A DNA stretch of 64,000 nt, taken from positions 11,134 through 75,133 of the IMG/VR virus record IMGVR_UViG_3300044591_001876; one strand, written 5' to 3'. Below are positions 10,527 through 58,235 of this stretch, in pieces. The notes under the pieces are model-generated. The model saw nothing but the letters and a program-made list of their open reading frames with translations, was not told where the DNA came from and ran no database searches. The stretch's first letter is position 1; every line of letters begins with the position of its first letter. The DNA is from a virus (taxonomy: Duplodnaviria; Heunggongvirae; Uroviricota; Caudoviricetes). The translations under genes and the position numbers were made by a program.

Positions 10527-10943
10527 ATGTCACTTCTTGAAATTCTATTCAATGAAAAATCTGAAATAGCTGTACAAACCAGAGTTTGTAGGTATTGTAA
10601 AAAAGAAAAACCATTAACTAAAGATTTCTATCACAGAAATCATTCTACCCAAAATGGTTTTAGATATGAATGTAAAGAATGTAGAAAACCGGGAGGTGTT
10701 AAAGACCCTTCAGCTTCTAAGAAATTGAAGAAAAAATATAATCTAAAAACACCACTCCTAGGCACTCCTTGTGCTTGTTGTGGAAAAACTGATCAACTGC
10801 TGGTTTGTGATCATATTCATGGAACTGAAACCATTCGTGGTTTTATTTGTGATAATTGTAATGTTGGTATTGGGAGACTTGGTGATAGTATTGAAGGCGT
10901 AAAAAAGGCACTTAATTATCTTGAGGGAAATTATTTGACATAA
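10527..10943 (+). CDS. Endonuclease VII-like HNH nuclease with N-terminal Cys4 zinc ribbon (possible homing/mobile endonuclease)
   Basis: CACCGKTDQLLVCDHIHGTETIRGFICDNCNVGIGRL matches Endonuclease_7 motif (C.CG..L.VDHDH.TG.vRG.LC..CN..lG); N-term CRYCKKEKPLTKDFY...GFRYECKEC Zn ribbon; sits inside tRNA cluster. Confidence 0.65.
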   Translation: MSLLEILFNEKSEIAVQTRVCRYCKKEKPLTKDFYHRNHSTQNGFRYECKECRKPGGVKDPSASKKLKKKYNLKTPLLGTPCACCGKTDQLLVCDHIHGTETIRGFICDNCNVGIGRLGDSIEGVKKALNYLEGNYLT

Positions 10944-10946
10944 CAA

Positions 10947-11018
10947 TGGAGTGTAGCTCAGTGGTAGAGCGGTCGGCTGTTAACCGATTGGTCGTAGGTT
11001 CGAATCCCACCACTCCAG
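10947..11018 (+). tRNA. tRNA-Asn (anticodon GUU)
   Basis: Acceptor TGGAGTG/CACTCCA perfect, D-arm GCTC-AGTGGTA-GAGC, anticodon stem GTCGG/CCGAT with loop CTGTTAA, T-loop TTCGAAT; starts 4 nt after nuclease stop. Confidence 0.75.
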
Positions 11019-11021
11019 TTT

Positions 11022-11104
11022 GGGTAGGTGTCCGAGTGGTTTAAGGAACCTGACTGTAAATCAGGCGGCTCTGTCCAACGTTGGTTCAAATCCAACCCTG
11101 CCCA
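11022..11104 (+). tRNA. tRNA-Tyr (anticodon GUA), class II
   Basis: Acceptor GGGTAGG/CCTGCCC (one G-U), anticodon stem CCTGA/TCAGG with loop CTGTAAA, 14-nt variable arm, T-arm GTTGG-TTCAAAT-CCAAC. Confidence 0.75.
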
Positions 11105-11144
11105 TTGGCGATACTGCCAAACCAGAATCCCTTCCGTGTGCTTT

Positions 11145-11174
11145 AAAACCTCTCCTTCGGGAGGGGTTTTATTG
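11145..11174 (+). terminator. Rho-independent terminator closing the tRNA cluster
   Basis: AAAACCTCTCC-TTCG-GGAGGGGTTTT: 11-bp stem with UUCG tetraloop followed by T-run. Confidence 0.7.
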
Positions 11175-11182
11175 TATAAATA
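11175..11182 (+). promoter_or_regulatory. T4-type late promoter (TATAAATA, exact consensus)
   Basis: TATAAATA 36 nt upstream of ATG 11219 of the giant ORF. Confidence 0.6.
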
Positions 11183-14200: not shown

Positions 14201-17200
14201 TCAATTGATAATAGAGCACAGGATGCTTCAAATATCATTGAAACTAATAAAACATTCATTCAGCAAGAAGCATACGGATATATCACACAAAAGTATCCAA
14301 ATCTTCTAACAAATACTAACATCGAAATTTCTACATGTGAAAGAGACATTGGTTATTTTGTTGATGCTGTAATTCAAGATTTACGTCTTGGTGGCAATAT
14401 TAACACTATTCAAGCTGCCGAAGGTTATTATATTGGCGGTCAATTAGCATACATTTCTAATGAATTAAACGAAACAATAGAAGCTCTTGATTACGTCAAG
14501 AATCTTTGTATTTCGACGATGAGAAATTATGATTATCTCATCAGAAATTGTGTAACGACACAGGGTTCTGCTATTGTCGATATTGGTGACACAAGTGGAA
14601 TCTTGATTGGAATGAAAGTAACCCAGTATGATTACAATCTAATTAATTTTACTGATGGTAAATTGAATCCTGGTGCTACACCAGTACAGTTAAACCCAGT
14701 TATTCCTAATAACGTATATGTTAAGAAAATTATTGATGCTAACAGAATTGAGCTAGGTAATCTTGGCAGTAAATTAGAACAAGGTTTGTCTGTCCCAGCA
14801 AACTTAAATTCTTCTTCTGCTTATCTATACTTTGAATTACCAAAAACAACATCAATTGTAGATAGCGATTCTAATCTTGTTGGTTCTTGGGCAGCGACTC
14901 CAGCTAAAAAAGATAATACTTTAATACAAGATACCAGCACTTGGGGTCCTACTGCTGGCAATGGCTATCCTGAGTGTTCTGGTGTTGCTACTATTATTCA
15001 GGAGTATTTTGTAAATATATTCTTGATTCTTAATCAAGGTTTAACTCCTCTTGGCGGTAAAGAAGTTGATGCTTCCAATTTAATTCTTGCTAATAAGAAT
15101 TTAATCGCTGAGGAAGCAGTTGATAGAATGCTTATTGCTAACCCAGGATTTGTAGTTCCTGGTGGCAATCAACAATGTACTGATGACGTTAAATTAATTA
15201 TTGATGCTATTGCTTATAATATTAAGTACGGCGGTAATAGTAGAGTTTATGATGCTGCTAGAGTATATGTACTTCAGCCTAATTTACTTAATGGAGAAAG
15301 AACTCAGGCTGTTCAAGTTTATACTCAAGTAAGAGATCTTGCTATCCAGGCAATGAGAAATCAGGTGATTACTATTCAAGGTGATCACAATTTAACTCAG
15401 TACATCGATAATACTGTTATTGGTGATCTTTCTGGTCAAGCTGGAGTCTATGATTCAGCTAATGATTGTGCTGATATTGCTAGCACAATTACTACATTTA
15501 ATGGTATTATTACTGGAGCTATTGGTACTGACGCTGATCCAGGTGATCTTGTTGGAATTACCAGAACTGAACCAGAATTTAATAATGTAACTCGTGTAGA
15601 ACCAGTTGTCGATACTGCTAATCTTGCTTCTAGAGCAACACTATTCACTGTTAATGTTGGTGGTGGTACTTCAAACCCACACAATTTTGAAACAGGAACT
15701 GCTGTTCGTCTTGTTCCTAAAGCAAGAGAAAGTACGAATCCAGATAAGAGAGTTATTCGTCTCCCAAGAGGATTCCAAACTAACACAGTTTATTATGTAA
15801 TTGCTCCAGGAAGAAGCACTTCACCAGAAGATTATTCTGATGAAACAACATATCCAAACACGTTTGGTCCTGATGAATCTACCAAGATCATGCTTGCTAG
15901 GACTAAAGAAAATGCTGCTGCTGGTATTTACATCTATTCGTCAGAAACAGATTCTGTAGACGAAGAAGTAGAAATTGAACTTCAGCAGTATGTTCTTGAT
16001 GAAACTTATGATCTACATCAATACCTATGTAACTTTATTACTGGTCAAACTGATGTAATTCAGACAGATGTACCACACGTTTTTGATGTCCCTTCTACAT
16101 TAAATACAGTACATAAAGTTTTCTTTAGATCATTTGGTGATCCTAGTGAATCAGAATTGCCACAAATTACTAGCGGTGGCATAACAGAGCCAATTGATAC
16201 TAACACATATTACTATGCTAGATTTGTTACACCAAAAACTTTCGCTCTTTTCTATACTCCAACTGAAGCAATTTCTGGTACTCCTAGAATCACTTTTACT
16301 GCTGGATTTGGTAAGAATTTCTATGTATTCTCGGATAAGAGAGAAAGCCCAGTAAAATTTGATGCTACTTTAGTAAATGCTGATACTACTACTGGTCAAT
16401 GGTATATTAACACCAAGAATGAAATTAGCAATCAATTTAATATTATTAGAAGAATTCAAGAACTTGGCGATACCTTAAAAGATGCTAGAAGTAAGAACAC
16501 TTTCTACAGAAGACTTAGAGATAATAGAACAGCTCAAGACAGAATTTATCGTTTAAGATATGTAATTCCTGAGTATGCTCAAGGTGTTCGTGATCCTCTC
16601 AATGGATTTGTTCTTAAAGCAAGAACTGACGAAACAAGAAGACTTCTCCCACAAAAAATTGTTTTAGCTCCTGTTGCTGTTGGATCTCCTAATCTTGCTT
16701 ATTTTGAAATTCAATTACAGCAACCAACTGGCGGAACAATCGCCCAGCAATTAGGATTACCTAAATCTCAGTTAGATCTTAATTTTGAATATGATCCATA
16801 CAACATTAATCAAGTAAAAGTAATTGATAGTGATAAAACACAAAGTAAAGTATCATTTAGCATTCAATCTGCTAGACAAGTTAATGTAAATGGAACAAAT
16901 CTTATTGAGTTAACTGTATTTGATTACGGAATTACCAACGATCAGTTGAGAAATGAGAAATTCACTACGGTCAAAATTGATGCTCCTCAAGGGGGAACTT
17001 TCCGATTTAATACATTAAACAGTGTATCAAATAATAGAATTACTTGGTCTGGTTTTTCTGCTGGTTCTGGCTACCTACAAGGTTACTTTAATGTAGATGG
17101 AACTGATGAACATTACTTAATCATCAAAAATATTGATGATAATAAGAGAATTGAGTATAATTCACTTATTGATACTGTATTCACTCAACCTGTTCTTGAC

Positions 17201-20200
17201 ATTGATGGAGAACCAGTATTTGATGGTGATGGAAATGCCGTATTGATTTTTGCTTTTCTACAAGCCAAAGAAAACAGCGTAGGAAGTGTAAACAATTCAT
17301 TAAGTAAATCTGATAGAAAAGATTATCTATACAGCATTAAGGATTCTAATGTTCTTACAATAACTCCTGGTGATATTATTGAAGATGATGACAGCACTCA
17401 ATATAGAGTTATATCAGTTGAGGATGCTGGTCAAATTGAAGATTCTTTCTACATCTTTGATATTGATGAAATCCAAAGACGTATTCCTAATCAGCAAGCT
17501 GGTATTTACTACCTAACTTGCCTTAAAGGTAATATCTCGCCATTCCCAACTGGACCTGGAGTTGGTACTAACTTTAGAAACTTTAAGTTTAGTCAGCCAA
17601 TTTCTCAACTGTATCCATTAGATTATAAGAATGATCCTCTGTGGTTCCAGGTAAGAGCAGATGGTTCTAGAGATACTTCTATTGTAGACGTTCCTCCAAC
17701 CATTTGTGCTGCTGATAACTTTGTTCATGGTTTAGTAACAACTAACGATTCTAAGAACAGTGAAACTAAAGAAGTTGTTTTAGATTTTATTAATAATCCT
17801 GCTTTAAACAGATATGATTACGTAGTTAATCCTATTGCTGCTCAAGCAGGAAATGCTACTTCTGGTTCTGAGGATAGATTAATTCCTATCTCTGGTGATT
17901 CTCCATACCCAACTGAAGGTAGACTATATGTAGAACTTCGTAGACCATCTATTGCTCGTTCTGGCAACCACACCTTCGAATATCTAGGTTTTGGTCCTGG
18001 TAACTACTCAACTGGTTTCCCACTAAGACAAGAAGTTGTTCTTTCCGATATTCAGGATTTCTATGCTCAATCTAAGAAAGAAGATGGTGGTATTGTATTC
18101 TATACTGGTCTAAACTCCAACGGTGACCTTTATATTGGTAACCGTAAAATTAATGCTATTACTGGTGAAGAGACATATTTAGAAAGGGCTCAATTAATTT
18201 CATCCGATGATGAAACAGATGATTTGGGTGGTCTAGTTACTACGTTCGAACTCCCTGTTGTATTTGAAAAAGATATTACTGTAGATGGCAATGCTAACTT
18301 TAATAATCCAGTAACAATTAATGTAGAACCATCTGAACCATTTGCTCTAACTGTTGTATCTAATTTAAATTCTTCCGCTGGTGAAGATGTAACATTAGAT
18401 AGTGCCACGTTTGCTTTAAGTGACATTCCTTCGGAAGGTAATATTGTATTGAGTAAAAATAATATTTACTCTGCCATATTTACTTTAAATCCACGAGGTA
18501 ACACTGCTTTAAGTGGTCAAAATTACAGCATTAGAACTCATGTAAACCAAACAAACGGCAATATTCCTTCCAATTACACTCCAAATCAAGAATTAAGCAC
18601 TCTTGGATTGAATGTAACATTTGGATCTGCTTCTCCTACTCCAGGTGATATTCTTCTAAAAGGAGCCCAAGTAGACAAAACTGGATCACTTGGATGGATT
18701 TACAGTAATTTCTATGATTTAATTACATCCAATGTATTCACTGTAACTGCTTTAGGTTCAAATATTGTTCAGTTTACACTTCAGGTAGGCGTAACAAATA
18801 GTCAAATTGGTATTACTCAAGGTTCTAAATTAAAAATTGGTGGATTTACTGGAAGATATGCTAATTTAAATGGTCTTAGAACTGTTGGCACTGTCACCAC
18901 AAATACATTCCAAGTAATCTCGCCGTTTATTATTTCCACCAGTGTCGATGATCCTACTATCATTCCAGCTGGATGGAGTATTGAAATTTCTAGAAATTCC
19001 TGGAAAGAATTTGGTGTTCTTGGAGCGGAAACTTTAAGAACAAATACACAAAATTATGGAGATTTTAAACTTGGTATTAATACTCTTGCTAGAGCAAAAC
19101 ATGGCACTGACGGAGATCAATTAACTGGTTTTGTTTCTCAAGCAGTCGATCCTAGAGCTAATCTAGATATCGTTGGTAATGCCTTTATTAGTGGCAGAAC
19201 TTTAAGTACTTCTCCAAACAACTTTATTAACAATCCTCTATTATCAAATAGAACATTTAATAAAGTTGATCATGCTTTTATTGTTGGATTTGATCCAAAA
19301 ACAAATGCTCCTCAAGATGAAGTTGTTCTAAGAGTTGCTTCCACAACTATAGGAACTGCTTCAAATGCTGGTGGAAGAATTGGTATCAACACCACGTTAT
19401 CTGAGTTGGATAGAAACTTTGTTGTTAAAGGTAACGCTAGAATTACTAATGATCTTAAGTTAGAATCTAATCTAGCAATTAACGGTGGATCATTAACAAC
19501 TACAAGTACATCGTTTAATATTCTTGATACTATTGCCACAGATGTAAACGCTTTCAGTGTTGCTGAAGAGTTAAACATTGCTAATATTACTAATGAAAAT
19601 CAATTAATCAACATTGGTAATGTATCAAACACTCAAGAATTTAACATTGGTAGATTTGTTCAAACTAGCCAGTTGTGGATTCATAGTAACTCTACTAATT
19701 CTTTAGTCGATATTGGTACTGTAAGTGAATCTAGTGCTAATACTAGTATTATTAGAATGGGTGGTGCTTTTGGAAAACTTAGTAACGTAGAAAGCTTATT
19801 TAAAATCAGGAACCGTTATACTGAAATTGATGGTAATCTATCAATCGGTACTTACAATCCACCAGGAACAGGTTTCTCGGAATTCCAAACTAATTCTAGA
19901 GAAGTTGAAATGTTCAGCAGAAACATTTCAACACTTGATTTTGCTACATCAGTAACAAGATTAAACATTGGTGGTGCTGGTGGTTTCACCACAATCAATA
20001 ATACTCTGGTAGTGAAAAATGCTGCTGAGGTTAATGGTGATATTACATTAATTGGTGGATTGAACGCTGGAGCGTTTACGGTAAGGAGAGGTTCTTTCGG
20101 AACTCCAACTACTATACATGTAAGAGGAAATATTGATCTCCTAAACGTCGATATTTTCAAAAAAGTAATCATCCAAAGAACTATTGATACTCAAGGATTA

Positions 20201-21733
20201 TCATTCTGGGGAGGAACGACATATCAAGTTGATCCATCAAATGCCGAAGAATATTTCCTACCTATTGGGGAGCAAAGTTTCAACGAGTTTGGTATTGGTG
20301 ATTATGTTTTAATTGATCGTTCTGTACAAGTTACTGGTCAAGATACTGTATCTTCTCCTGTTGGAGAGCAATATAGTGAATTAGTACAGGTTATTGAACT
20401 TACTAATCTAAACGATATTTCTGATTTACCACTTAGAGTTAAAGTAAAGCGAGCTAGAAATGCTCTTACTGGCGAAGGTTTGATGATATCTGGTCCTAAT
20501 GTTGGATCCAGCACAGGTGTTTATCGTTATCTTAGAACTGATCACCCAGATAATGCTGTTCTTGTAAAATATACTTTAGCAAATGATGTAAGTTATATTG
20601 ATGAAGTAAGTGGATTGAATAATCCTGGTTCGGGAACAGTTCAAACAATTGCTACTGGTGTATTCAGCGGATCTGTAATTCCTGGCGATATTCTGAGATT
20701 TAGTGATAGTGAATTAGCTAATGTTAATGCTATTAATCAGACAACTAATCAACTTTTCAGAATTAATGATGGCGGCAACCCAGCGAATACTGTGTTCCAA
20801 GTTGATTCTACAACTGGTAATACAATTATAGCAGGAACTTTAGATTTAAATAAAACCTTCACACTTATTGGATCTTCAACAACAAATCAAGATAGATTTG
20901 TAATTACTAATGGCACTTCTCAAAGATTTGCTGTTGATAGTGCTACTGGCAACACATGTATTTTTGGAAATCTTGGTGTTGGTGGTTCGACTTGTGATAG
21001 ATTTAAAGTTGATGGCGCTACATCAAATACCACTTTACGTGGTGGAAATCTATTAATTACTGACAACAATCCTGTTGATGATGGTGATGGTGGATTAGTA
21101 TTTGGTCAGAAACTATTCTTACAAAATACTACAGGAAATCTGACTATTTCTGGAACGTTAACTACTGAAGGATCTGGTACTAGCACTTTTGCTGGTGATG
21201 TTAAAATTAACGGCGGTGATTTAACAGTTAATAAGATTGTTAGTGATGGTGATGGTGGAACATTAGAGCAAAAATTATTTGAAATTGGCAATGATGGATC
21301 TATGGATTTTGCTGGAGTAAATGGATTCTTTACTCCATCGGGTGCTAGAAAATGGGTATACGTTGGTGGTGGCGAAGATGTCATCGAGGGGGTTGCTAAT
21401 GTGAATTATTTCCTTTCTCCTTCTGCTGACACCATCTTCAAACTTCCACAAAATCCAACGACTGGTGATATGATTAGAGTAGTAGATGTTGGTGGAAATC
21501 TAACTTATAATATCTCATTGAGATTTAGAGCACCTTCGACTGTTCGTGTTCAGGGAGACAATACAAACTCTGGACAAGGACCAGCTATCGGGTCTACATA
21601 TAATGGTGGTGAACTTGTAGTACAATCTCCAAATGCTGCTCTCGGATTAATTTACATTGGTCCATTAAATTATGATGGTACTACTACTGGGGCTCCTCCA
21701 TCACAACAAGGTTGGTGGTTAATGGAAATCTAA
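11219..21733 (+). CDS. Giant virion structural protein (3504 aa), putative fiber/host-recognition protein with four N-terminal Cys-containing repeats
   Basis: Single uninterrupted ORF; late promoter; four copies of C.RDIGY.VDAV..DL..GGN......A..Y motif between aa ~180 and 1330; beta-rich, T/N/G/S-rich composition typical of fibers. Confidence 0.7.
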   Translation: MALTRLDNLYSSKTGKYLYVSPDDFNATDELDNRGNSPLRPFKTIQRAFIEVARYSYLPGQDNDRFDQFSIMLMPGDHYIDNRPGLIEVDRGEKQRYFDAKELIIANRQEIIDRAFGEIAIEYDEAAWGTDWVVPGDPINSDLNRGFDSYRLIQKNRQEIVDGAFAQIAITHPTFTNPNSAKCQRDIGYFVDAVSLDVLLGGGNRYTRKFLQNYFNNSGTAWIDNGLQGEEAESTTAFNKARDLMKAAVANQLTFKDLTLTIDPLTGSNTTVNSCANIQTTIATLTAIVTDVINDGNLEYLPEETIETIGLGESKCKRDIGYIVDAVAADLANGGNANIVAAAKSYFTKEGLPISNGLLGEEAQSVIAFNAAKVMMKKAVTNQLYSKDLNILSGPAVYNSGGPVVPNLPSGNVATCVDVQATIDTLIGIITTAISDGDITSLANVQITGDIPVFNYNRALEEWQDNSILDLSNPDNVLYKFNASTGGAIVPRGCSLIGYDLRRTIVRPLYVPDPADGTQERTSIFNLTGGCYIWQFTIKDGDLSENSPLYDNNDKVGKVYFQKGNNTQLAIPEYSHHKITIMTYADLDDLDLYYNKVATAFALFQPTIDDGDLEALPQENRIVGPLSDTRSIVNIRLKQSTNPSRTTIVATTKIAHGYFVNQYVAIVDNGLNDLLNGTFKVTAVDQEDPRIFEYQVATTPAILGLDINENGYSNSTTPSLNLSARAQAEIDSVESASPYVFNCSIRSTWGQCGMWADGSKATGFKSMVVAQYTGVSLQRDDRAFIRYDEFSNTWNQASLVDAFATIPYHSKGDAYWKDDWRNFHIRASDDAFIQCVSVFAVGFFDHFLMESGGDMSITNSNSNFGNTSLHAVGFKGFSFNQDKGGYITDIIPVKEIDDSAFNEVELKYYSIALQVSKDVANQTKLYYGSDDSYDPFDRPSTSISGYRLGAKTDEKIYLKLKSPAGTTEEYFSSVTPNGFKKYTVSLETLNPDGISIDNRAQDASNIIETNKTFIQQEAYGYITQKYPNLLTNTNIEISTCERDIGYFVDAVIQDLRLGGNINTIQAAEGYYIGGQLAYISNELNETIEALDYVKNLCISTMRNYDYLIRNCVTTQGSAIVDIGDTSGILIGMKVTQYDYNLINFTDGKLNPGATPVQLNPVIPNNVYVKKIIDANRIELGNLGSKLEQGLSVPANLNSSSAYLYFELPKTTSIVDSDSNLVGSWAATPAKKDNTLIQDTSTWGPTAGNGYPECSGVATIIQEYFVNIFLILNQGLTPLGGKEVDASNLILANKNLIAEEAVDRMLIANPGFVVPGGNQQCTDDVKLIIDAIAYNIKYGGNSRVYDAARVYVLQPNLLNGERTQAVQVYTQVRDLAIQAMRNQVITIQGDHNLTQYIDNTVIGDLSGQAGVYDSANDCADIASTITTFNGIITGAIGTDADPGDLVGITRTEPEFNNVTRVEPVVDTANLASRATLFTVNVGGGTSNPHNFETGTAVRLVPKARESTNPDKRVIRLPRGFQTNTVYYVIAPGRSTSPEDYSDETTYPNTFGPDESTKIMLARTKENAAAGIYIYSSETDSVDEEVEIELQQYVLDETYDLHQYLCNFITGQTDVIQTDVPHVFDVPSTLNTVHKVFFRSFGDPSESELPQITSGGITEPIDTNTYYYARFVTPKTFALFYTPTEAISGTPRITFTAGFGKNFYVFSDKRESPVKFDATLVNADTTTGQWYINTKNEISNQFNIIRRIQELGDTLKDARSKNTFYRRLRDNRTAQDRIYRLRYVIPEYAQGVRDPLNGFVLKARTDETRRLLPQKIVLAPVAVGSPNLAYFEIQLQQPTGGTIAQQLGLPKSQLDLNFEYDPYNINQVKVIDSDKTQSKVSFSIQSARQVNVNGTNLIELTVFDYGITNDQLRNEKFTTVKIDAPQGGTFRFNTLNSVSNNRITWSGFSAGSGYLQGYFNVDGTDEHYLIIKNIDDNKRIEYNSLIDTVFTQPVLDIDGEPVFDGDGNAVLIFAFLQAKENSVGSVNNSLSKSDRKDYLYSIKDSNVLTITPGDIIEDDDSTQYRVISVEDAGQIEDSFYIFDIDEIQRRIPNQQAGIYYLTCLKGNISPFPTGPGVGTNFRNFKFSQPISQLYPLDYKNDPLWFQVRADGSRDTSIVDVPPTICAADNFVHGLVTTNDSKNSETKEVVLDFINNPALNRYDYVVNPIAAQAGNATSGSEDRLIPISGDSPYPTEGRLYVELRRPSIARSGNHTFEYLGFGPGNYSTGFPLRQEVVLSDIQDFYAQSKKEDGGIVFYTGLNSNGDLYIGNRKINAITGEETYLERAQLISSDDETDDLGGLVTTFELPVVFEKDITVDGNANFNNPVTINVEPSEPFALTVVSNLNSSAGEDVTLDSATFALSDIPSEGNIVLSKNNIYSAIFTLNPRGNTALSGQNYSIRTHVNQTNGNIPSNYTPNQELSTLGLNVTFGSASPTPGDILLKGAQVDKTGSLGWIYSNFYDLITSNVFTVTALGSNIVQFTLQVGVTNSQIGITQGSKLKIGGFTGRYANLNGLRTVGTVTTNTFQVISPFIISTSVDDPTIIPAGWSIEISRNSWKEFGVLGAETLRTNTQNYGDFKLGINTLARAKHGTDGDQLTGFVSQAVDPRANLDIVGNAFISGRTLSTSPNNFINNPLLSNRTFNKVDHAFIVGFDPKTNAPQDEVVLRVASTTIGTASNAGGRIGINTTLSELDRNFVVKGNARITNDLKLESNLAINGGSLTTTSTSFNILDTIATDVNAFSVAEELNIANITNENQLINIGNVSNTQEFNIGRFVQTSQLWIHSNSTNSLVDIGTVSESSANTSIIRMGGAFGKLSNVESLFKIRNRYTEIDGNLSIGTYNPPGTGFSEFQTNSREVEMFSRNISTLDFATSVTRLNIGGAGGFTTINNTLVVKNAAEVNGDITLIGGLNAGAFTVRRGSFGTPTTIHVRGNIDLLNVDIFKKVIIQRTIDTQGLSFWGGTTYQVDPSNAEEYFLPIGEQSFNEFGIGDYVLIDRSVQVTGQDTVSSPVGEQYSELVQVIELTNLNDISDLPLRVKVKRARNALTGEGLMISGPNVGSSTGVYRYLRTDHPDNAVLVKYTLANDVSYIDEVSGLNNPGSGTVQTIATGVFSGSVIPGDILRFSDSELANVNAINQTTNQLFRINDGGNPANTVFQVDSTTGNTIIAGTLDLNKTFTLIGSSTTNQDRFVITNGTSQRFAVDSATGNTCIFGNLGVGGSTCDRFKVDGATSNTTLRGGNLLITDNNPVDDGDGGLVFGQKLFLQNTTGNLTISGTLTTEGSGTSTFAGDVKINGGDLTVNKIVSDGDGGTLEQKLFEIGNDGSMDFAGVNGFFTPSGARKWVYVGGGEDVIEGVANVNYFLSPSADTIFKLPQNPTTGDMIRVVDVGGNLTYNISLRFRAPSTVRVQGDNTNSGQGPAIGSTYNGGELVVQSPNAALGLIYIGPLNYDGTTTGAPPSQQGWWLMEI

Positions 21734-34258: not shown

Positions 34259-35200
34259 ATGGGAAAATTAAATTTTAATCCTGACGATTTTGTATTTGAA
34301 AAGTTGCCTTCTCCTGATGAGAAAAAAACAATTCTTGAGTATGATGCAAAAAACAGATTAATTCTTCTAAGAACTAAAGACGAAACTGGTAATTATGTTT
34401 ACAACAGTGTAGTAATTAGTTCGGCAATCAATGAAAATATTTTAAAAAATATTCCTGATGAGTGGTCAAATGACAACGATAGAATTATTTTGTTCGCCAT
34501 CTACGAAAATGGTGATTATATAATTGAAAAGGAAAAATTGAAATATGATTTTTCTACAAAAAATACTAGATGGATTCAATATACATCTGACTTCTTAACT
34601 ATAGAACAAGCAAAAGAATTATATAATATTCTGAATGCTGCTATCACTATCGACACGGAAGTAAAAAATTATAATGCTACTAAAGAGTATTTGGAATTAT
34701 CTAAAACTGCTTATTATCTTTCCGAATTCAATAAAAAAAATGATCATTTTATTGAGGAATTGTTGAGAGGAACTGATCATAAGGTTCTCCCAGATGCTCC
34801 AGAACTTTTTGAAAATGAAAAGGAAATGTGGATTACGTGGAGAAATAAACTTCGTGATTTGGATAAAATCCGTGATGATTTTGAAACTGATTTAGATTAT
34901 ATAATTTGGATTGAGGAAATGAAATGGCCCATAAGACCAGATCAATACTATTCAAAGTATTCTAATTTAGAAGAGGAATATTTAAGTACTCCAGATCAAT
35001 TTGTAAATAATCCACAATTTTTGAATCTTAAATCATCTTCCGATTCAACAATGGAAGTTACAAAATTTGCTGAAATGATTAGAACGTATGAAGTATCTGG
35101 GTTTGAAATTAACCCAACAACATCAAAACTTGTGGCCAAATATAATTTAATTAAAGATATCGAAGAGTTTAAAACTATTAAAATGAAGGAGATGGAATGA
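34259..35200 (+). CDS. Hypothetical protein (313 aa), late-expressed
   Basis: ORF with late promoter; K/E/D/N-rich; no recognisable motif. Confidence 0.5.
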   Translation: MGKLNFNPDDFVFEKLPSPDEKKTILEYDAKNRLILLRTKDETGNYVYNSVVISSAINENILKNIPDEWSNDNDRIILFAIYENGDYIIEKEKLKYDFSTKNTRWIQYTSDFLTIEQAKELYNILNAAITIDTEVKNYNATKEYLELSKTAYYLSEFNKKNDHFIEELLRGTDHKVLPDAPELFENEKEMWITWRNKLRDLDKIRDDFETDLDYIIWIEEMKWPIRPDQYYSKYSNLEEEYLSTPDQFVNNPQFLNLKSSSDSTMEVTKFAEMIRTYEVSGFEINPTTSKLVAKYNLIKDIEEFKTIKMKEME

Positions 35201-35586
35201 TGATAACTAGAGATTTTTTAGAGTGGATTGAATACTATACAGAAACTCAGAAAAAAACGATGATGATTCTGAGAACTGTTGGACCAGACAATGTAACGGA
35301 CACGGAAAAAGCAAATCAAATTTATTCAGCATATTATCAAAATCTACAGCCAGAATCACCTGAGTTATTTGACAAACTATTGTATAATGAATTTACATTT
35401 GTGGAATTTGATACCGAAGAGCAAGCATATCTATTTGCCACTGAGAATTTTCCAATGAATCGAGATGGCGATCCTGATTATTTTGTTCAGGTTGTGGTAT
35501 TTTCGAACGGTAATTTGGCTTACTCGAACGATAATCTACGATCATTTTCTGACAGAATACCGCCCCCAGTTCAGCCACCTGCTTAA
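35197..35586 (+). CDS. Hypothetical protein (129 aa)
   Basis: ATGA overlap with upstream gene. Confidence 0.5.
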   Translation: MMITRDFLEWIEYYTETQKKTMMILRTVGPDNVTDTEKANQIYSAYYQNLQPESPELFDKLLYNEFTFVEFDTEEQAYLFATENFPMNRDGDPDYFVQVVVFSNGNLAYSNDNLRSFSDRIPPPVQPPA

Positions 35587-35593
35587 TTGGCAC

Positions 35594-35629
35594 AAGGGGG
35601 TTGACTGCCCTCTTTTTTTGTGCCATACT
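35594..35629 (+). terminator. Composite element: G5/C-run hairpin + T7 terminator whose loop is the -35 TTGACT of a sigma70-like promoter
   Basis: cacaaGGGGG-TTGACTG-CCCTC-TTTTTTT, then 17-nt spacer to CATACT (35624-35629). Confidence 0.55.
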
Positions 35630-35651: not shown

Positions 35652-36878
35652 ATGAAACTCCGCCCTCAACAAGAGCAGAGCATTGCCGCCATGATCAAGC
35701 ACCAGTTTGGGCAGATCATTGCTCCCACTGGAGCTGGCAAGACTCTCATCATGATTTATGATGCTATTCGTCGAATGAACGAATCTAGCAGACCACTGAC
35801 CATTGTTGTGTGTGCTCCTCGTATTCTCCTGGCAGAGCAGCTGTCCAGCGAGTTTCTTGAGCACATTGATTTTGCCAATATTCTTCACGTTCATAGCGGC
35901 GAGACTCATCACAAAAGCACCACCAAGCCCGATGTGATTGCTGCTTGGGATGAAGTTGTAGATAATCATAAACTCATTTTTACTACCTATAATTCTCTTC
36001 GTCGTGTTAACGAGTCAGAAATCAATATCGATGTTGCTTATTTTGATGAAGCCCACAATAGCACTCGTGTAGATTTCTTTGACTCTGTGGCATCCTGTAA
36101 TGCTACCAACTATTATTATTTCACTGCTACTCCTAAGCATCGTCGTTCTTCGCTTGGCACTGGCATGAACAACAGCATGGTATTCGGTCAGATTATTTCT
36201 AACATTTCAGCTCCAGAACTTGTAGAGCAAGGCAATATTCTTCGTCCTACCATTCAGATTCATGAAGTTGATTATGAGCGTCAGAAAGGTCTCACTGCTG
36301 CTGACAACGACGCCAGCACCCTGATCGACATGATCGACGGACTGGACTCTAGGAACGCCCAGAAGGTGCTTGTGGCTGCTCCCAGCAGCAAGATCCTCTG
36401 GCAAATGCTGTCGAGCACCAAGGTGCTCTCAGACCTCGCTGAGCGAGGCTTTGATGTTCTTCATATTACCAGCAAGTTTGGTGCTTATGTCAACCAAACC
36501 AAAGTTGATCGTGAGACTTTCTTCGACACTTTCAATTCTTGGGGTCAAGATCCTAACCGTAAGTTTATTATCTTCCACTACAGTATTCTGTCCGAAGGCA
36601 TCAACGTTCATGGTCTGACTCACACCATCTTGCTTCGTAACCTGCCGATTGTGGAAATGGCACAGACCATCGGGCGTGTGATCCGTCTTAACAAAGACGA
36701 CGCTAGGGACGTTGAGTGTGGTAAAATCGAGGCAGGAAACTTCGCTATGTACCGAAAGCCCACTGGGTTCGTCACCGTTCCCGTCTTCAAGAACTACGGC
36801 AAGAAAACCCAGCGTCGTCTGGAAGAAGTCGTAAACACCATTTTTGTTCAAGGTCAACCCGCCATTGATGTACGATGA
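35652..36878 (+). CDS. SF2 DEAH-box helicase (UvsW/ResIII-like core)
   Basis: Start taken at ATG 35652 (track uses TTG 35601); motif I APTGAGKT, II FDEAHNS, III FTATP, VI QTIGRVIR (same as T4 UvsW motif VI); GC ~50-60%. Confidence 0.7.
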   Translation: MKLRPQQEQSIAAMIKHQFGQIIAPTGAGKTLIMIYDAIRRMNESSRPLTIVVCAPRILLAEQLSSEFLEHIDFANILHVHSGETHHKSTTKPDVIAAWDEVVDNHKLIFTTYNSLRRVNESEINIDVAYFDEAHNSTRVDFFDSVASCNATNYYYFTATPKHRRSSLGTGMNNSMVFGQIISNISAPELVEQGNILRPTIQIHEVDYERQKGLTAADNDASTLIDMIDGLDSRNAQKVLVAAPSSKILWQMLSSTKVLSDLAERGFDVLHITSKFGAYVNQTKVDRETFFDTFNSWGQDPNRKFIIFHYSILSEGINVHGLTHTILLRNLPIVEMAQTIGRVIRLNKDDARDVECGKIEAGNFAMYRKPTGFVTVPVFKNYGKKTQRRLEEVVNTIFVQGQPAIDVR

Positions 36879-37861
36879 CACTCAAACGATCAATTGATTA
36901 CAAGGATCAACTACTCACTTTCAAACAACTTGAGGGTGTAGTTGCTCGTAAAGACATTATCACTGGTCCTGCTGAAGCTATTGTTGCTCAAGCAAAGATC
37001 AATGATTTTTCCTGGGAATCTGCTGTTCAAACATATTCGAAGTTCACGAAAGAAGAACAAGCAGACATTCGTAAGTCTGGACAGCAATTGCTGGCTGGAT
37101 ACTATGATCCCCTCACAAATACCATAGGTTCTCCTGGTTCTAACCCCACAGAAGCCAGGGGTATCATGATTACCCAAATGTATCTCAATCAGGATCGTTG
37201 CTGTGCTTATAGTGGCGACGGTCCATATCATATTTTAGATTTTCAGGTAGAACACATTGATCCTATTGCTGGTGATCATCCAGAAAATATTGTACTTGTC
37301 CTTGCTAACATCAACGAGAACAAGAAGCAATCTGCTCAAAATTTTATTCAACGTTGTGAACGTCGATATGAAATGGGAGAGCTTGAATATACTATCTGGT
37401 ATAAGTCTATGAAAGACGCTGTGAAGCGTAATCATAAGATGAAAGCGGAGATTCTTTCTATGAGTGAGCATGAATTGTGTCAGTATTGGCTCACTCGTAC
37501 CACACCCAAATACGACAAATATGTGTGGCGTAACATTGGGATGTCTTCGCTGAGTGAATTCCGTATCCTCAAGGGTTCTGGAATCAAGCGAGCTGGTGGC
37601 ACTCAGGGGAACTACGTGGACATCCTCAACACTATCGCTGCCGAGCACCTGTTCGGAAATCCTGACGTAGCACGAGACATCTACGAGTGTGCTAGAATGT
37701 TCAGGAGCAATTTTCTCAATGGACGGATTCAGCGTGAGGAATATGCCATGTTTAACATGGAGATTATAGAGTTGTCAGATCACATCAATCCAGGTTATAA
37801 TAGAGAAAAGTTTTACAACAACATCGTTCGGAACAACTATTCATGGCCTCATCTAAACTGA
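36875..37861 (+). CDS. HNH-motif nuclease domain protein (328 aa)
   Basis: CCAYSGDGPYHILDFQVEHIDPIAGDHPENIVLVLANINENKKQS = C..Y.G....h...vEHI.P...G..h..N....N...K HNH signature; ATGA overlap with helicase stop. Confidence 0.6.
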   Translation: MTLKRSIDYKDQLLTFKQLEGVVARKDIITGPAEAIVAQAKINDFSWESAVQTYSKFTKEEQADIRKSGQQLLAGYYDPLTNTIGSPGSNPTEARGIMITQMYLNQDRCCAYSGDGPYHILDFQVEHIDPIAGDHPENIVLVLANINENKKQSAQNFIQRCERRYEMGELEYTIWYKSMKDAVKRNHKMKAEILSMSEHELCQYWLTRTTPKYDKYVWRNIGMSSLSEFRILKGSGIKRAGGTQGNYVDILNTIAAEHLFGNPDVARDIYECARMFRSNFLNGRIQREEYAMFNMEIIELSDHINPGYNREKFYNNIVRNNYSWPHLN

Positions 37862-38700
37862 CCAACCATTCCCTGTACCGCTACGCTGGCGGTAAAAATA
37901 GGATGAAAAATGAGATTATCGACATTATCAAGGATGTTTATCCTGGTGTCGATTATGTTGTTTCTCCTTTTCTTGGCGGCGGTTCGGTTGAGATGCTGCT
38001 TGCCTCTCAAGGCATTCAAGTACAGGCATACGATATTTTTCGTTCCCTTGCCGATTTTTGGGAAATACTGACTACCGAAGGTGGCAACCGATTGGCGGAT
38101 GAAGTCACTAAACATTATCCGTTGATTGATAGTGATCATTATAAATCTTTTCTGCCATTAATGGATAGTGAAGATAAATTTACCCGTGCCTGGGCATTCT
38201 ATATTGCTATCAAGGGATCTTATTCTGGAAAGATTGGATGCTCCACTGTACGCTCTAGGGCAGAATTTCGCTTGGTTGGTGTGGAAAAGCTTAGGAAATT
38301 CAATAATCCCAACTTTAGTTTCAACTATGGCAGTTGTTTCGACACCATTCCCCAGCATGTAGATGATTTCATGTATTTGGATCCACCGTACTACGAAACT
38401 GTCAGCCATTATTATGGTAAGGATGGTGAACTACATAAGACGTTCGACCATGAAGAGTTTGCCGAGATTCTTAAATCTCATCGTGGCGGCTTTGTAATGT
38501 CCTACGATAACAGCGAAAGTGTTCAAAACCTTTATAAGGATTGGACTGAGTTTCGATACTTGACTTTCCCGTATCAAATGTCTGGCACTAAGCGGTATGA
38601 GAAAACGGAACTCATCATCGTTAAATATCCAGAAAATCCCAAACCAAAACCCAAAAGTATACTAGAAACGTTTTTAACACAGGAGAATGTAAATGTATGA
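37843..38700 (+). CDS. dam: Dam-like N6-adenine DNA methyltransferase (D12 class)
   Basis: N-terminal YRYAGGK (Dam xWAGGK), FLGGGSV (FxGxG SAM motif), YLDPPY (DPPY catalytic motif); 19-nt overlap with HNH gene. Confidence 0.75.
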   Translation: MASSKLTNHSLYRYAGGKNRMKNEIIDIIKDVYPGVDYVVSPFLGGGSVEMLLASQGIQVQAYDIFRSLADFWEILTTEGGNRLADEVTKHYPLIDSDHYKSFLPLMDSEDKFTRAWAFYIAIKGSYSGKIGCSTVRSRAEFRLVGVEKLRKFNNPNFSFNYGSCFDTIPQHVDDFMYLDPPYYETVSHYYGKDGELHKTFDHEEFAEILKSHRGGFVMSYDNSESVQNLYKDWTEFRYLTFPYQMSGTKRYEKTELIIVKYPENPKPKPKSILETFLTQENVNV

Positions 38701-39486: not shown

Positions 39487-39747
39487 ATGACTTTATACTA
39501 CTACGCCATATTTGCTTTCTTTGCTATCATTGCTTATATGATGGTAGTAGATAAAAACGTCGTCATATTTATTGACTTGATGTTTCGCTATGCTGGGGTT
39601 CAACTCAAGCGAGCATGGTGGATTGTCAGATTTCACCCAATCAACCCAATCCCACGCTGGACTCTCAAATGGAGAGTCGAGAGGATGACCAGGCAACTGG
39701 AAAAAGATCTTAAGATCAACACAAAGGGCTTGACGGACCCCGACTGA
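39487..39747 (+). CDS. Small membrane protein
   Basis: ATG 39487; N-terminal hydrophobic segment LYYYAIFAFFAIIAYMMVV. Confidence 0.4.
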   Translation: MTLYYYAIFAFFAIIAYMMVVDKNVVIFIDLMFRYAGVQLKRAWWIVRFHPINPIPRWTLKWRVERMTRQLEKDLKINTKGLTDPD

Positions 39748-39780
39748 GCTGCTACCATACAACCATCAACGAATTTCGCC

Positions 39781-45872: not shown

Positions 45873-45907
45873 AACTGACACAAGAGGGTTGACACCCTCT
45901 TTTTTAT
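45873..45907 (+). terminator. Composite terminator/promoter: AGAGGG-TTGACA-CCCTCT-TTTTTAT hairpin with -35 in loop, 17-nt spacer, TATACT
   Basis: 6-bp perfect stem, loop = TTGACA (45879-45884), T-run, -10 TATACT 45902-45907. Confidence 0.6.
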
Positions 45908-45940
45908 GGTCTATACTGACTTCAGTTCAAACAAAAAAAC

Positions 45941-53118: not shown

Positions 53119-53283
53119 ATGACTCTCCCAAAACAACCAAATAGTAGTCTCAACAATGAAGAATGGAATGAGATGGTTGCCTTAAGGAACGCCATTCATG
53201 ACCTTCCCCAGTCAGTTTCTCCAGAAAAAATGGAACAATTTACAGCGTATCTTGTGAGAAGCATCCGAGAAAATGGTGGGTGA
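53119..53283 (+). CDS. Hypothetical protein (54 aa)
   Basis: ATG 53119 with AGAGG RBS, extended -10 TGTATAAT at 53082-53089. Confidence 0.3.
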   Translation: MTLPKQPNSSLNNEEWNEMVALRNAIHDLPQSVSPEKMEQFTAYLVRSIRENGG

Positions 53284-53302
53284 CAGTTGAGCAAGTGGCA
53301 CA

Positions 53303-53337
53303 GGGGGCTTGACGCCCCCTTTGTTTTGCCCTATATT
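53303..53337 (+). terminator. Composite terminator/promoter: GGGGGC-TTGAC-GCCCCC-TTTGTTTT, 17-nt spacer, TATATT
   Basis: 6-bp G/C stem with -35 TTGACG (53309-53314) in loop; -10 53332-53337. Confidence 0.55.
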
Positions 53338-53361: not shown

Positions 53362-53818
53362 CATGGCAACCCGCTCACGAATCGGCATCATGCTTCCCGA
53401 CGAATCTGTGCTCTCGGTGTACCACCACTGGGATGGCTACCCAGAGTGGCTTGGTCGTATTCTCAAGACCCACTACAACAGCCGTGAGAAAGCGTCTGAA
53501 CTGATCGACGGCGGTGATATGAGTTCCTGCTGGACTGAAGATCGTTGGACTACTGAAACCATTCAGTTGAATCCTTATGTTTCTGAAGCAAATACTTCTA
53601 CGAAAGAAGTAGAATACGGTCCTCAGTATTATTCTCAGCGTGGCGATGATTGCCCCCCTCGGCATGATGACAACAAGTATGATTATCTTGCCGATGGCGA
53701 GGAGTATGCTTACCTGTTCACTCTCGATGGCGAGTGGATCTGCTATGATCGCCACCAGTTTGAAGAGAACACTATGCCCACCATTGCTGAGATTCCTTCG
53801 GGAGCACTGGCAGTCTGA
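53362..53818 (+). CDS. Hypothetical protein (152 aa)
   Basis: ATG 53362 with AGAGGA RBS (track uses TTG 53309 inside the promoter). Confidence 0.5.
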
Positions 53819-55947: not shown

Positions 55948-56147
55948 AAGATGGATATGCTACGGTCCCCTGGGGGGACCGTTTTGTTTTAATACACAAT
56001 GGCTTTCAGCTCAGTGATCACAAGACAGATGAGCAAGCAATTGAAGCACTCAAGAAACATAGGGAGAAAAACAAACCGAAGCCACCCAAACGTGCCAGTA
56101 AGAAAACTGGCACACGCTCCAAGTCAAAGGGTAAAATTGACTTATAA
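55938..56147 (+). CDS. Hypothetical protein with Lys-rich tail (69 aa)
   Basis: ORF. Confidence 0.4.
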   Translation: MITKDGYATVPWGDRFVLIHNGFQLSDHKTDEQAIEALKKHREKNKPKPPKRASKKTGTRSKSKGKIDL

Positions 56148-56342: not shown

Positions 56343-57965
56343 ATGTCAGCAACTACTTCCATAGAAAGTTTACAGTGCTTCGCATTTGCTTATTATGCTA
56401 TAAATCCAACTATTACTAATGTTCACCAACAAAATTGGTATGATATATTTGATATAACACAATTATCTCAACAAGAAATAAAAAACAAATCTAATTTATT
56501 GAGATCTACATATGGCAATCATTTGAGTTCAACGTTTAGTTCAAACATATTTGAAAATGTATTGAACCAATATGGAAGCACATTAACAGCTACAGGAAAA
56601 GTTAGCATTAGTGAATATGTTAAGAAAGTATATCTTGTTGCCAAGAAAGTTGCTGCCACTTCTTTATTAGATAAGTGGTCACAATACGTGTTTCTTGATC
56701 AATCAGATTCTTTCACTACACTGGTTAAAAATACTGCTTTACAAAGAATCGCTTCAGCATTTGATATGCTAGGCAAAGATGATTTACTTTCCCCAGTAGA
56801 TATGTTTGCCGTAAAGAAAACTAAAATTACTACAATTCTTACTGATTTCAACAAGCATATAATTAATGCTACCGATGAACAATTGCTAGCAAATACTATT
56901 TGGGGTAAAACTGGCAAGAATACATATAGAACTTTATCAAACAAGTATTTCAAATCAAAATCTATGATTGGAATATCATTGAAATTACCTGAAGCGATTA
57001 CTGGATCAGGAATAATAAAAATTGTTGGTACTGAAAATGTTGATTCATCTCTTCTTGGTTTTGTAGATCCATATACAAAATTGATTGCTGCTATGTTAGC
57101 ACATCCAACACAAACAAAAAAATTAATTGAGGACGTTATTGATATTGAATTTGATAATTTTAGAATAACACCTGATTTATTATCATGGGAGTACCCCATT
57201 ACGTTTAGATATAAAGATGTTGTAGATCCCAGAACAGGATTAGAATTACACAAACAAAATCTTCGATTTAAATTGATGACATGGAGCAGTCAAGGATTTA
57301 ATGCTTCGTGGTATAAAGGACAAGAAGCACCAGGAAATTGGACTGGTGGAGCCACAACTATTCCTATTGGCGAACTATTTGTTAGATACAATGAATATTC
57401 TGGAATTTTAAATGAATTGGTTAAATTAAGAAGAGCAGCATTTTTCTATGCTATTCATGGATCTACTAAAGATCCCTCATCAATAATACCTAAAAATTTG
57501 AAGTCTGAATATGAGAAGGCATTAAATGATGTGGAAAAGAAAATGATACTCACATCAGACAAAAGAGCCAACGTGGGCGAAGCAAAGAATTTGATAACGT
57601 TTTTGGAGGCATATTCTCCATCTTCCAACAAATATCATGTTTATCAGGAACATCTCATATTAAGTACAACAAGACCTATGAGAAATTCATCTAGGATTGT
57701 AACTAAAGATCCTAAGAGATTGAATGCTCACTACATTGCTTGTCAATGTGCTTGGTTTTTGTTTAGAGGTGGTCCTTCAATGCACAAATATCTCAAACAA
57801 AGAATGTTCTTATCATTGTTTGGTTTAATTACTAAGAGTGGATACAAAATCTTTCAAGGTAATGAGAACACTGTTATGGAAGATTACCTCCAGAAATCAT
57901 TCAAGAAAAACAAGAAGAATTTTGTAGCATACTTCAATGCTGCTCCCCACATCGTATTGTCATAG
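56343..57965 (+). CDS. Late-expressed AT-rich protein (540 aa), possibly structural
   Basis: Late promoter; AT-rich like structural block; no motif. Confidence 0.55.
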   Translation: MSATTSIESLQCFAFAYYAINPTITNVHQQNWYDIFDITQLSQQEIKNKSNLLRSTYGNHLSSTFSSNIFENVLNQYGSTLTATGKVSISEYVKKVYLVAKKVAATSLLDKWSQYVFLDQSDSFTTLVKNTALQRIASAFDMLGKDDLLSPVDMFAVKKTKITTILTDFNKHIINATDEQLLANTIWGKTGKNTYRTLSNKYFKSKSMIGISLKLPEAITGSGIIKIVGTENVDSSLLGFVDPYTKLIAAMLAHPTQTKKLIEDVIDIEFDNFRITPDLLSWEYPITFRYKDVVDPRTGLELHKQNLRFKLMTWSSQGFNASWYKGQEAPGNWTGGATTIPIGELFVRYNEYSGILNELVKLRRAAFFYAIHGSTKDPSSIIPKNLKSEYEKALNDVEKKMILTSDKRANVGEAKNLITFLEAYSPSSNKYHVYQEHLILSTTRPMRNSSRIVTKDPKRLNAHYIACQCAWFLFRGGPSMHKYLKQRMFLSLFGLITKSGYKIFQGNENTVMEDYLQKSFKKNKKNFVAYFNAAPHIVLS

Positions 57966-57984
57966 ACACCACACAAACCGTCAC

Positions 57985-58018
57985 GGGGGCTTGACCAGCC
58001 CCTTTTTCATGCTATGAT
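57985..58018 (+). terminator. Composite terminator/promoter: GGGGGC-TTGACCA-GCCCC-TTTTT, 16-nt spacer, TATGAT
   Basis: -35 TTGACC 57991-57996; -10 58013-58018. Confidence 0.5.
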
Positions 58019-58043: not shown

Positions 58044-58235
58044 ATGAGCACCACCACTAAGAAGCCCTATCCCCTGGGCATTGACAACCCCATGATCATT
58101 CGTGCTAGGATTGGTACGAGCAAGTGGGAGATCATTGATCGTGAGACTCGCCACTGCCTTGGTGTCTACCCCAATGAGTTTACTGCCTACGATGCTCGAC
58201 GTGCCATGCTACGTTACGCTGGTTACGATGCCTGA
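58044..58235 (+). CDS. Hypothetical protein (63 aa)
   Basis: ORF. Confidence 0.4.
   Translation: MSTTTKKPYPLGIDNPMIIRARIGTSKWEIIDRETRHCLGVYPNEFTAYDARRAMLRYAGYDA

Follow-up and report, generated by a model that had tools for sequence, protein, structure and literature searches.

A recurrent intergenic cassette in cyanomyovirus DNA with a predicted -35 box in the loop of a terminator-type hairpin

How can a phage end one transcript and begin the next on the same few dozen base pairs? This question is raised by an element that recurs between genes in a 64,000-nt stretch of viral DNA (hereafter the window; positions 11,134 to 75,133 of IMG/VR virus record IMGVR_UViG_3300044591_001876). At four places a G-run, a TTGAC motif, a C-run and a T-run form what looks like an intrinsic terminator, and the loop of the hairpin carries the -35 hexamer of a promoter whose -10 hexamer lies 16 or 17 nt further on. 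We consider it likely that these elements belong with the PeSLs (promoter-early stem-loops), the repeated promoter and stem-loop cassettes of T4-type phages, and that in each of them the Rho-independent terminator of the upstream + strand gene overlaps a strong early promoter of the next gene, of the type used by the host sigma70 (cyanobacterial group 1 sigma). Judged from the sequence and its conservation, the composites are real, conserved and very probably functional.

Four composites between + strand genes

The four full composites, all on the + strand, are as follows.

35588 to 35629, + strand: full composite between the open reading frame (ORF) 35197-35586 and the helicase gene (ATG at 35652); TGGCACA box 35588-35594, hairpin 35594-35614, -35 TTGACT 35601-35606 in the loop, T-run 35613-35619, extended -10 TG 35621-35622, -10 CATACT 35624-35629; sequence from 35594 AAGGGGG-TTGACTG-CCCTCTT-TTTTT-GTGC-CATACT; RNA fold of the hairpin -11.6 kcal/mol.
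45876 to 45917, + strand: full composite between an ORF ending at 45872 and an ORF starting at 45941; TGACACA box 45876-45882, hairpin 45882-45901 (8 pairs, loop TGAC), -35 TTGACA 45889-45894, -10 TATACT 45912-45917; sequence from 45882 AAGAGGGT-TGAC-ACCCTCTT-TTTT-ATGGTC-TATACT; RNA fold -10.9 kcal/mol, z = -3.7.
53296 to 53337, + strand: full composite between ORFs 53119-53283 and 53363-53818; TGGCACA box 53296-53302, hairpin 53302-53320 (loop TTGAC), -35 TTGACG 53309-53314, -10 TATATT 53332-53337; sequence from 53302 AGGGGGC-TTGAC-GCCCCCT-TTGTTTT-GCCC-TATATT; RNA fold -17.6 kcal/mol, z = -3.5.
57980 to 58018, + strand: full composite between ORFs 56343-57965 and 58044-58235; GTCAC box 57980-57984, hairpin 57985-58003 (loop TGACC), -35 TTGACC 57991-57996, -10 TATGAT 58013-58018 (16-nt spacer, TG before the -10); sequence from 57985 GGGGGCT-TGACC-AGCCCCT-TTTT-CATGC-TATGAT; RNA fold -12.0 kcal/mol, z = -2.4.

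The hairpins at 35594, 45882, 53302 and 57985 have 7-8 pairs and loops of 4-7 nt that hold the -35, and their RNA folds range from -10.9 to -17.6 kcal/mol (z = -1.7 to -3.7). A generic, independent terminator scan picks up exactly these four TTGAC-loop hairpins. The -35/-10 pairs that overlap them are called by a generic promoter scan, the spacers being 17, 17, 17 and 16 nt; a TG precedes the -10 in two of the four. The four terminators, with the -35 in the loop and a spacer of 16-17 nt, are thus all present as the initial annotation had described them, and its proposal of an intrinsic terminator holding the -35 of the next sigma70-type promoter is supported by the sequence and by the comparisons given below.

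Chance is a poor explanation of this arrangement. TTGAC in a terminator loop followed by a -10 occurs four times in the window and in none of 300 dinucleotide shuffles of it, and TTGAC in a terminator loop, with or without a -10, has a mean of 0.007 per shuffle. Promoter-like sites with an upstream G-run number six, against a shuffle mean of 0.3 and a maximum of 3. The motif GGGGGTTGAC at one mismatch or fewer is found eight times against 1.98 expected, a count reached in 0 of 100 shuffles.

By its genes and closest matches the window is T4-like cyanomyovirus DNA, since it holds PHROG families of the baseplate and tail (baseplate hub/tail lysozyme, tail, short tail fibre) and its best tblastn matches are to Synechococcus phages. 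The nearest isolate by tblastn is Synechococcus phage Sf-FR1 (51% for a tail protein and 71% for the helicase), with lower values for S-CAM1, S-CAM3, S-H9-2 and S-RIM44, and a megablast search of the 33-39 kb region against isolated phages gave no match. Other genes of the window encode the helicase, a Dam methylase, two RNA ligases and eight tRNAs, and all the long ORFs are carried by the + strand. An Rfam scan of the window at the gathering threshold returned tRNAs only and no other RNA family.

The gap that holds each composite measures 65-79 nt and lies between + strand genes. The distance from the upstream stop codon to the hairpin start is 8-20 nt and that from the -35 start to the next ATG 51-54 nt, leaving a predicted leader of roughly 16-20 nt. 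Together with the incomplete copies listed below there are eight copies; seven of them fall at 35.6-63.2 kb, from the border of the helicase gene through the small + strand ORFs that follow it, and the eighth (8484) stands at the head of the tRNA cluster. The element at 35588 marks the border of the tail-fibre block against the helicase gene and its small ORFs.

Conservation in related phages

A search of viral metagenome contigs with the helicase protein gave 22 loci at 69-100% amino-acid identity, and a wider comparison set of about 1.6 Mb joins the window to 123 loci of related phage DNA (loci are labelled with L numbers; L126 is Sf-FR1, L127 is RB49 and L128 is S-H9-1). A composite about 50 nt upstream of the helicase ATG is kept in 20 of the 22 loci. 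Among these orthologues TTGAC and ATACT are invariant and the other positions drift, the far upstream flanks being unrelated. The stems vary as well (GGGGG/CCCCC, GGGGG/CCCTC, GGGGC/GCCCC and, in a shifted register, GGGGGC/GCTCCC), with G-C to C-G exchanges in three sequences. The 3' arm has been lost and the promoter kept in L012, and L008 and L017 have a different promoter without a hairpin. An inverted GGGGGTTGACA stands just upstream of the helicase cassette in L009-L012 and L014.

The composite at 45876 has orthologues in L044, L045, L046 and L076 with differing stems (GGGGC/GCCCC, GGGGGG/CCCCC), and that at 53296 has one in L076 at 16433. No relatives of the 540-aa protein encoded upstream of the fourth composite (56343-57965) were found in the viral contigs, so that orthologues of the 57985 element could not be collected.

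The wider set (about 1.6 Mb) contains 374 terminator-like hairpins, and no 5-mer is as frequent in their loops as TTGAC, with 36 cases; CTTCG, the next one unrelated to it, has 14. A -10 follows at 16-18 nt in 34 of 37 distinct sites with TTGAC in a terminator loop, compared with 17% of all TTGAC. The distance from the -35 to the start codon, where the start is assignable, is 49-61 nt and mostly 51-52 nt. Moreover, the same design is built on unrelated stems, as in L045 with its reversed polarity (CCCCCC-TTGACT-GGGGGG) and also in L069 and L104, which indicates selection on the architecture and not only common descent.

Cultured phages carry related cassettes. A 76-nt query from 53290 matches intergenic DNA, with 89 of the 117 records belonging to Synechococcus phages, and short BLAST matches of the 53296 element lie in the intergenic DNA of S-H9-1 and ACG-2014f. 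The cassettes of these two Synechococcus phages (S-H9-1: GTGGCACAGGGGGC-TTGCACT-GCCCCC-TTTTT-CATGC-CATAAT and AGGGGGT-TGACAC-ACCCCCT-TTTT-CATGC-CATAAT; ACG-2014f: CTGGCACAGGGGGG-TTGGCGAA-CCCCC-TTTTTT-GTGC-TATAAT) are near-identical to those of the window. Upstream of its helicase gene S-H9-1 keeps the hairpin, the T-run and the -10, with a TTCG loop and no -35, whereas Sf-FR1 at the same place keeps the promoter with its G-run and has no hairpin. As these two cases show, terminator and promoter are separable modules, superimposed repeatedly.

A back-to-back palindrome, TTGTCAA-GGGGG-TTGACAA, was also seen in Sf-FR1 (L126, about 19935-19960) and in L053, L056, L059 and L113. Its two -35-like boxes on opposite strands, with G5 between them, suggest divergent promoters using one G-run.

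The upstream box and the incomplete copies

Just upstream of the -35 the cassettes carry a TGGCACA-G5 box, which also occurs in copies that have no terminator. The initial annotation had reported such copies near 8485, 63063 and 63153, keeping the box and TTGACA without the C- and T-runs; they are present, and one more weak copy was found at 39718-39758.

8484 to 8525, + strand: half element without terminator, TGGCACA-GGGGGG, -35 TTGACA 8497-8502, -10 TATTAT 8520-8525; follows ORF 8163-8483 and heads the tRNA cluster region; orthologue in L037.
39718 to 39758, + strand: weak half element, ACACAAAGGGC, -35 TTGACG 39730-39735, spacer 17, -10 TACCAT 39753-39758 preceded by TGC; shares bases with the end of ORF 39487-39747.
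63066 to 63085, + strand: degraded copy, ACACAGGGGC-TTGACA (TTGACA from 63080), box and -35 only; no -10 at 16-18 nt.
63162 to 63202, + strand: half element, TGGCACA-GGGGG, -35 TTGACA 63174-63179, -10 TACACT 63197-63202, without C- or T-run; orthologue in L036 at 272.

The copies at 8484 and 63162 both read GGCACAGGGGG-TTGACA with a -10 at 17 nt and are devoid of a 3' arm, C-run or T-run. RNA folds of the four terminator-less copies are no better than those of shuffles.

The box is retained in 13 of 16 orthologous copies, next to farther flanks that are unrelated, it occurs in the terminator-less copies of the window and in marine isolates, and TGGCACA is enriched in the window (21 against 8.4 expected). 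Among loci not selected via the motif, CACA stood 4-14 nt upstream of TTGAC in 18 of 24 composites; the corresponding numbers are 3 of 26 where a G-run promoter has no terminator and 26 of 509 for the remaining promoter-like sites. Since many of these composites are mutually orthologous, the counts are not independent. A G-run beside the -35 is a somewhat more general feature: with the motif-selected loci included, 69 of 632 promoter-like sites have one, compared with 53 of the 3100 other TTGAC. The earlier proposal that the upstream block is conserved beyond what a stem needs is therefore borne out by the terminator-less copies and by the orthologues, while CACAGGGGG as a general UP-like or factor-binding site is not, because about 95% of the other promoter-like sites are without the box. 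We read TGGCACA-G5 as the conserved core of one cassette family, probably kept alike by descent or recombination.

A specific recognition site, conserved for that function and not for the stem or by ancestry, is a doubtful alternative; it might be a cyanophage-specific upstream promoter element, or the site of a transcription factor or recombinase of phage or host. In its favour, copies that have no 3' arm still have the block (at 8484, at 63162 and in many contigs retrieved by an exact 17-mer), and marine isolates belonging to other genera (S-H9-1 and ACG-2014f), with a helicase only about 58% identical, carry it in nearly the same form. The retention of the box beside unrelated flanks and its enrichment in the window point the same way, and Arbiol et al. 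speculated that the GGGG...CCCC motif may be a target of recombination proteins (PMC2839356). However, most candidate early promoters lack the box (CACA is in 75% of composites, against 12% where a G-run promoter lacks a terminator and 5% at the remaining promoter-like sites), including six strong promoter-like sites of the window (8660, 8874, 43754, 51878, 59204 and 60727). E. coli-type UP elements are A/T-rich in the region where the box lies here. In addition, no partner half-site or dyad was found at a fixed spacing, and the GGCACA of several copies is no more than the complement of TGTGCC in the extended -10 region.

The bolder form of this idea, in which a (C/G)TGGCACA-G5 box common to the uncultured clade and to cultured marine Synechococcus myoviruses of other genera is dedicated either to a phage-encoded or host protein that tunes termination or initiation or to a cassette-exchanging recombinase, seems to us more doubtful still. 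If it were true, the elements would be a site-specific module-shuffling system and not passive homology.

Two known site types were considered for the box and rejected. In sigma54 promoters the GG and GC dinucleotides are exactly 10 nt apart; for a sigma54 promoter (TGGCAC-N5-TTGC) the expected GC reads TG in TGGCACAGGGGGTTGAC and the -12 element would be TTGA, and we know of no cyanobacterial sigma54. A CRP-like dyad (TGTGA-N6-TCACA) has its upstream half-site at 8484 only, with none at 35588, 53296 or 63162. A literal search of papers for GGCACAGGGG gave unrelated matches only.

Plain terminators also occur on the + strand.

55962 to 55990, + strand: plain intrinsic terminator without promoter, ACGGTCCCC-TGG-GGGGACCGT followed by TTTGTTTT.
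63783 to 63812, + strand: plain intrinsic terminator, AAGGGGGGC-ATTA-GCCCCTCTT followed by TTTTT; stem of the type seen at 35594, loop without TTGAC.

Hence four of the six strong + strand terminators at 35-64 kb have TTGAC in the loop and these two are plain; the one at 55962 indicates that the phage also uses stand-alone terminators.

Several further signals were noted near the incomplete copies. The 506-nt stretch 62823-63328 is free of ORFs and contains two palindrome copies, TTTTCCACA-N3/4-TGTGGAAAA (62868-62893 and 63120-63143), and phased A-tracts lie at about 63215-63300, after the 63174 promoter; an operator, an origin and bent DNA are possible readings of this stretch. An ATG at 63209, at the predicted transcription start of the 63174 promoter, opens a 22-codon ORF. 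The eight-tRNA cluster (8708-11105) lies downstream of promoter-like sites at 8497, 8660 and 8874, and two of its members, tRNA-Ile(tat) at 8708-8797 (90 nt) and tRNA-Leu(caa) at 10012-10083, are ARAGORN calls without an Rfam call at the gathering threshold. The sigma70-like promoter at 8660-8700 has an inverted repeat, GATACCA-TAGAT-TGGTATC, over its -10, and at the sigma70-like promoter at 8874-8910 the repeat TTGACAAT...ATTGTCA bridges the -35 and the region past the -10; both resemble other positional subclasses of PeSLs, which are described below.

Beyond the tRNA cluster, a 3504-aa ORF at 11219-21733 is closely preceded by a terminator (CCTCTCC-TTCG-GGAGG with a T-run, 11149-11182) and, no more than 10 nt past it, by TATAAATA, a motif resembling T4 late promoters; the arrangement of terminator and motif was also seen at 28524 and 28729, and S-H9-1 (L128 reverse strand, 34438) has the same order of terminator and then CTAAATA. 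Terminators appear to abut late promoters as well as early ones here. The 3504-aa ORF has a Pfam Phycobilisome-protein match at residues 1279-1384 (E = 4.7e-11). Its counterpart in Sf-FR1 is of identical length (10,515 nt) and annotated as a tail protein, and a similar gene of 10,296 nt in S-H9-1 is annotated as tail fibre-like.

Known cassettes, alternative explanations and significance

PeSLs were described in phages RB49 and phi1 as repeated intergenic cassettes made of a consensus sigma70 promoter and a stem-loop, often poly-G followed by poly-C (Arbiol et al. 2010; PMC2839356). Five subclasses differ in the position of the stem-loop (between the boxes, over the -35, over the -10, upstream or downstream), lacZ assays revealed strong promoter activity and termination comparable to rrnB T1, and recombination between copies gave indels and mini-circles (PMC2839356). 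The family was later extended to T4/PST and KVP40/nt-1, with degraded half copies described (Comeau et al. 2014; PMC4122927). For cyanophages, the sole mention that we found in the literature is that PeSLs are sparse in S-PM2, where their density is low (PMC4503421).

The elements of the window are like PeSLs in several respects. They lie in a T4-type myovirus genome, as repeated intergenic cassettes among small variable ORFs and probably at borders where the gene content of relatives differs, and they have degraded half copies. Their promoter, TTGAC(A/T/G/C) with a 16-17 nt spacer and CATACT, TATACT, TATATT or TATGAT, is close to the near-consensus TTGACA-N17-TAnnnT of PeSLs, and a poly-G/poly-C stem-loop overlapping the -35 is one of the five described subclasses. 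Differences are also apparent. The clade here is Kyanoviridae-like cyanophage, the -35-in-loop form dominates whereas in phi1 and RB49 the stem-loop commonly lies over the -10 or in the spacer ahead of it, and the Shine-Dalgarno sequence is weak or absent at 35652 and 45941. An AT-rich upstream region is also missing (AT content 0.50-0.54 at 13-60 nt upstream of the -35, against 0.62 for the window), and a conserved, GC-rich TGGCACA-G5 box stands in its place. Having the core PeSL features, they seem best filed functionally with the PeSLs of T4-type phages, as a clade-specific variant. The initial annotation's view of the design as unusual is accordingly not supported, since the design matches PeSL cassettes including the subclass with the stem-loop over the -35 (PMC2839356).

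A comparable script run on the first 50 kb of RB49 found hairpins upstream of the -35, between the boxes, or with the -10 hexamer in a terminator-type loop. At 46800 on the reverse strand of RB49 (L127), TTGACA-tacaagggagattctc-TATAAT-gggagtctccctttt places the -10 in the loop of a hairpin of 12 pairs, with a T-run after it. By its sequence this is the -10 analogue of the -35-in-loop geometry, which suggests that a promoter hexamer in a terminator loop is already part of the PeSL family. In its title and abstract a 2026 bioRxiv preprint ('Widespread coupling of promoters and terminators of transcription in bacteria', 10.64898/2026.08.19.745784) claims that promoter-terminator coupling is widespread in bacteria. 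The likeness is that neighbouring units have their start and stop signals physically linked and not independent, and the difference is that it concerns bacterial chromosomes and not repeated phage cassettes.

Base sharing of this kind is plausible because the hairpin acts in the nascent RNA and the -35 in duplex DNA; a hairpin makes no demands on the sequence of its loop, and a promoter makes few on its spacer and on the positions directly before the -35. TTGAC occupies the loop with the 5' G-arm just upstream of the -35, and the 3' C-arm and T-run take up the first 12-14 nt of the 17-nt spacer, before the TG-extended -10. RNA of the upstream gene would then form the hairpin and be released in the T-run, within the spacer of the next promoter, and the host polymerase with its primary sigma would initiate about 7 nt past the TG-extended -10. 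Each gap of 65-79 nt may in this way insulate one transcription unit and restart the next with a short leader.

That the hairpin is mainly a stabiliser or processing signal of the RNA 3' end, or a partial attenuator, with the promoter overlap a by-product of compaction, appears improbable. The stems are short (5-8 pairs) and weak in some orthologues such as L007 and L010-L011, the stem is lost and the promoter kept in L012 and Sf-FR1, and PeSL stem-loops have themselves been termed 'terminator/attenuator' (PMC2839356). Yet all four hairpins have a canonical T-run directly after a GC-rich stem and pass a standard terminator scan. To our knowledge cyanobacteria lack Rho, and intrinsic signals are hence the expected way of ending transcripts. 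One PeSL stem-loop cut lacZ expression as much as rrnB T1 did (PMC2839356).

Another possibility is a cruciform extruded by supercoiling, in which the -35 lies in a single-stranded loop and the promoter is switched off or on as in N4-type hairpin promoters. The position of the -35 exactly in the loop, and a longer imperfect palindrome at 35588-35625 (GGCACAA...TTGTGCC), would suit this view, but we regard it as highly improbable. Short arms (5-8 bp) with loops of 4-7 nt form cruciforms poorly. A cruciform would have no use for the T-run, which follows in every case and is diagnostic of terminators, and no covariation is seen among orthologues in the outer GGCACA/TGTGCC bases. In phage N4 the early promoters are recognised by a virion-packaged single-subunit RNA polymerase as a DNA hairpin with a 5-7 bp stem and a 3-nt loop. 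A short GC-rich hairpin within the promoter region is common to both, whereas the loops here are of 4-7 nt, hold a sigma70 -35 box and are followed by a T-run. No N4-type virion RNA polymerase was found, the 3504-aa ORF having no polymerase domain in Pfam and a counterpart in Sf-FR1 annotated as a tail protein. An N4-like phage with hairpin promoters, suspected from this giant ORF, was thus rejected on its match to a tail protein and on the T4-like baseplate and tail genes.

That the repeats are remnants of a mobile or recombining, miniature-repeat-like sequence with no role in transcription can hardly be credited, for although they are multi-copy, stand at module borders, include degraded copies (63066, 39718) and show the same core in differing gene contexts across contigs, every copy is on the coding strand at a fixed distance from the start codon (49-61 nt), 34 of 37 copies have a -10, and orthologues agree throughout in TTGAC and the -10 hexamers but drift at the remaining positions.

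Recombination may still have shaped the distribution of PeSL-type cassettes in these phages. The 5' edge of the box, at 35584-35597, is where 19 BLAST alignments of helicase loci start to match the window, and most of these loci have unrelated DNA ahead of it. ORF 8163-8483, which precedes the 8484 copy, is elsewhere in L004, L005 and L007, where it adjoins a 39483 homologue, and the block 36875-38700 (a 328-aa ORF and the Dam methylase) is missing from several relatives (L006-L008, L011 and L015). Such breakpoints and moving modules would fit PeSL-mediated exchange. The TGGCACA-G5-TTGAC block was probably spread and kept alike by duplication or recombination, as proposed for PeSLs, and may also be a joint for the swapping of gene modules, which is consistent with these data.

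Several points weigh against the reading of the composites as overlapping terminators and promoters that also serve as joints. Formal covariation is weak: 81% of cells are paired, slid registers pair almost equally well because the arms are homopolymer-like, and the covariation score was matched in 20 of 500 shuffles. The host, and hence the specificity of the sigma factor, is deduced from relatives only. The homology breakpoints at the 5' edge of the element coincide with gene ends too, so that recombination within the element is not proven.

The composites reveal no new principle. They would extend PeSL-type cassettes to the cyanomyoviruses, an ecologically major phage group for which the literature that we found gives no description of them beyond one paper calling them sparse. 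A rule for recognising early units and module borders in uncultured cyanophages may follow from them: a G-arm, a TTGAC loop, a C-arm, a T-run, a TG-extended -10 and about 51 nt to the ATG. They are also candidates for compact, insulated expression parts in cyanobacterial synthetic biology, and may serve as a test case for a terminating and an initiating polymerase on a shared stretch of about 45 bp.

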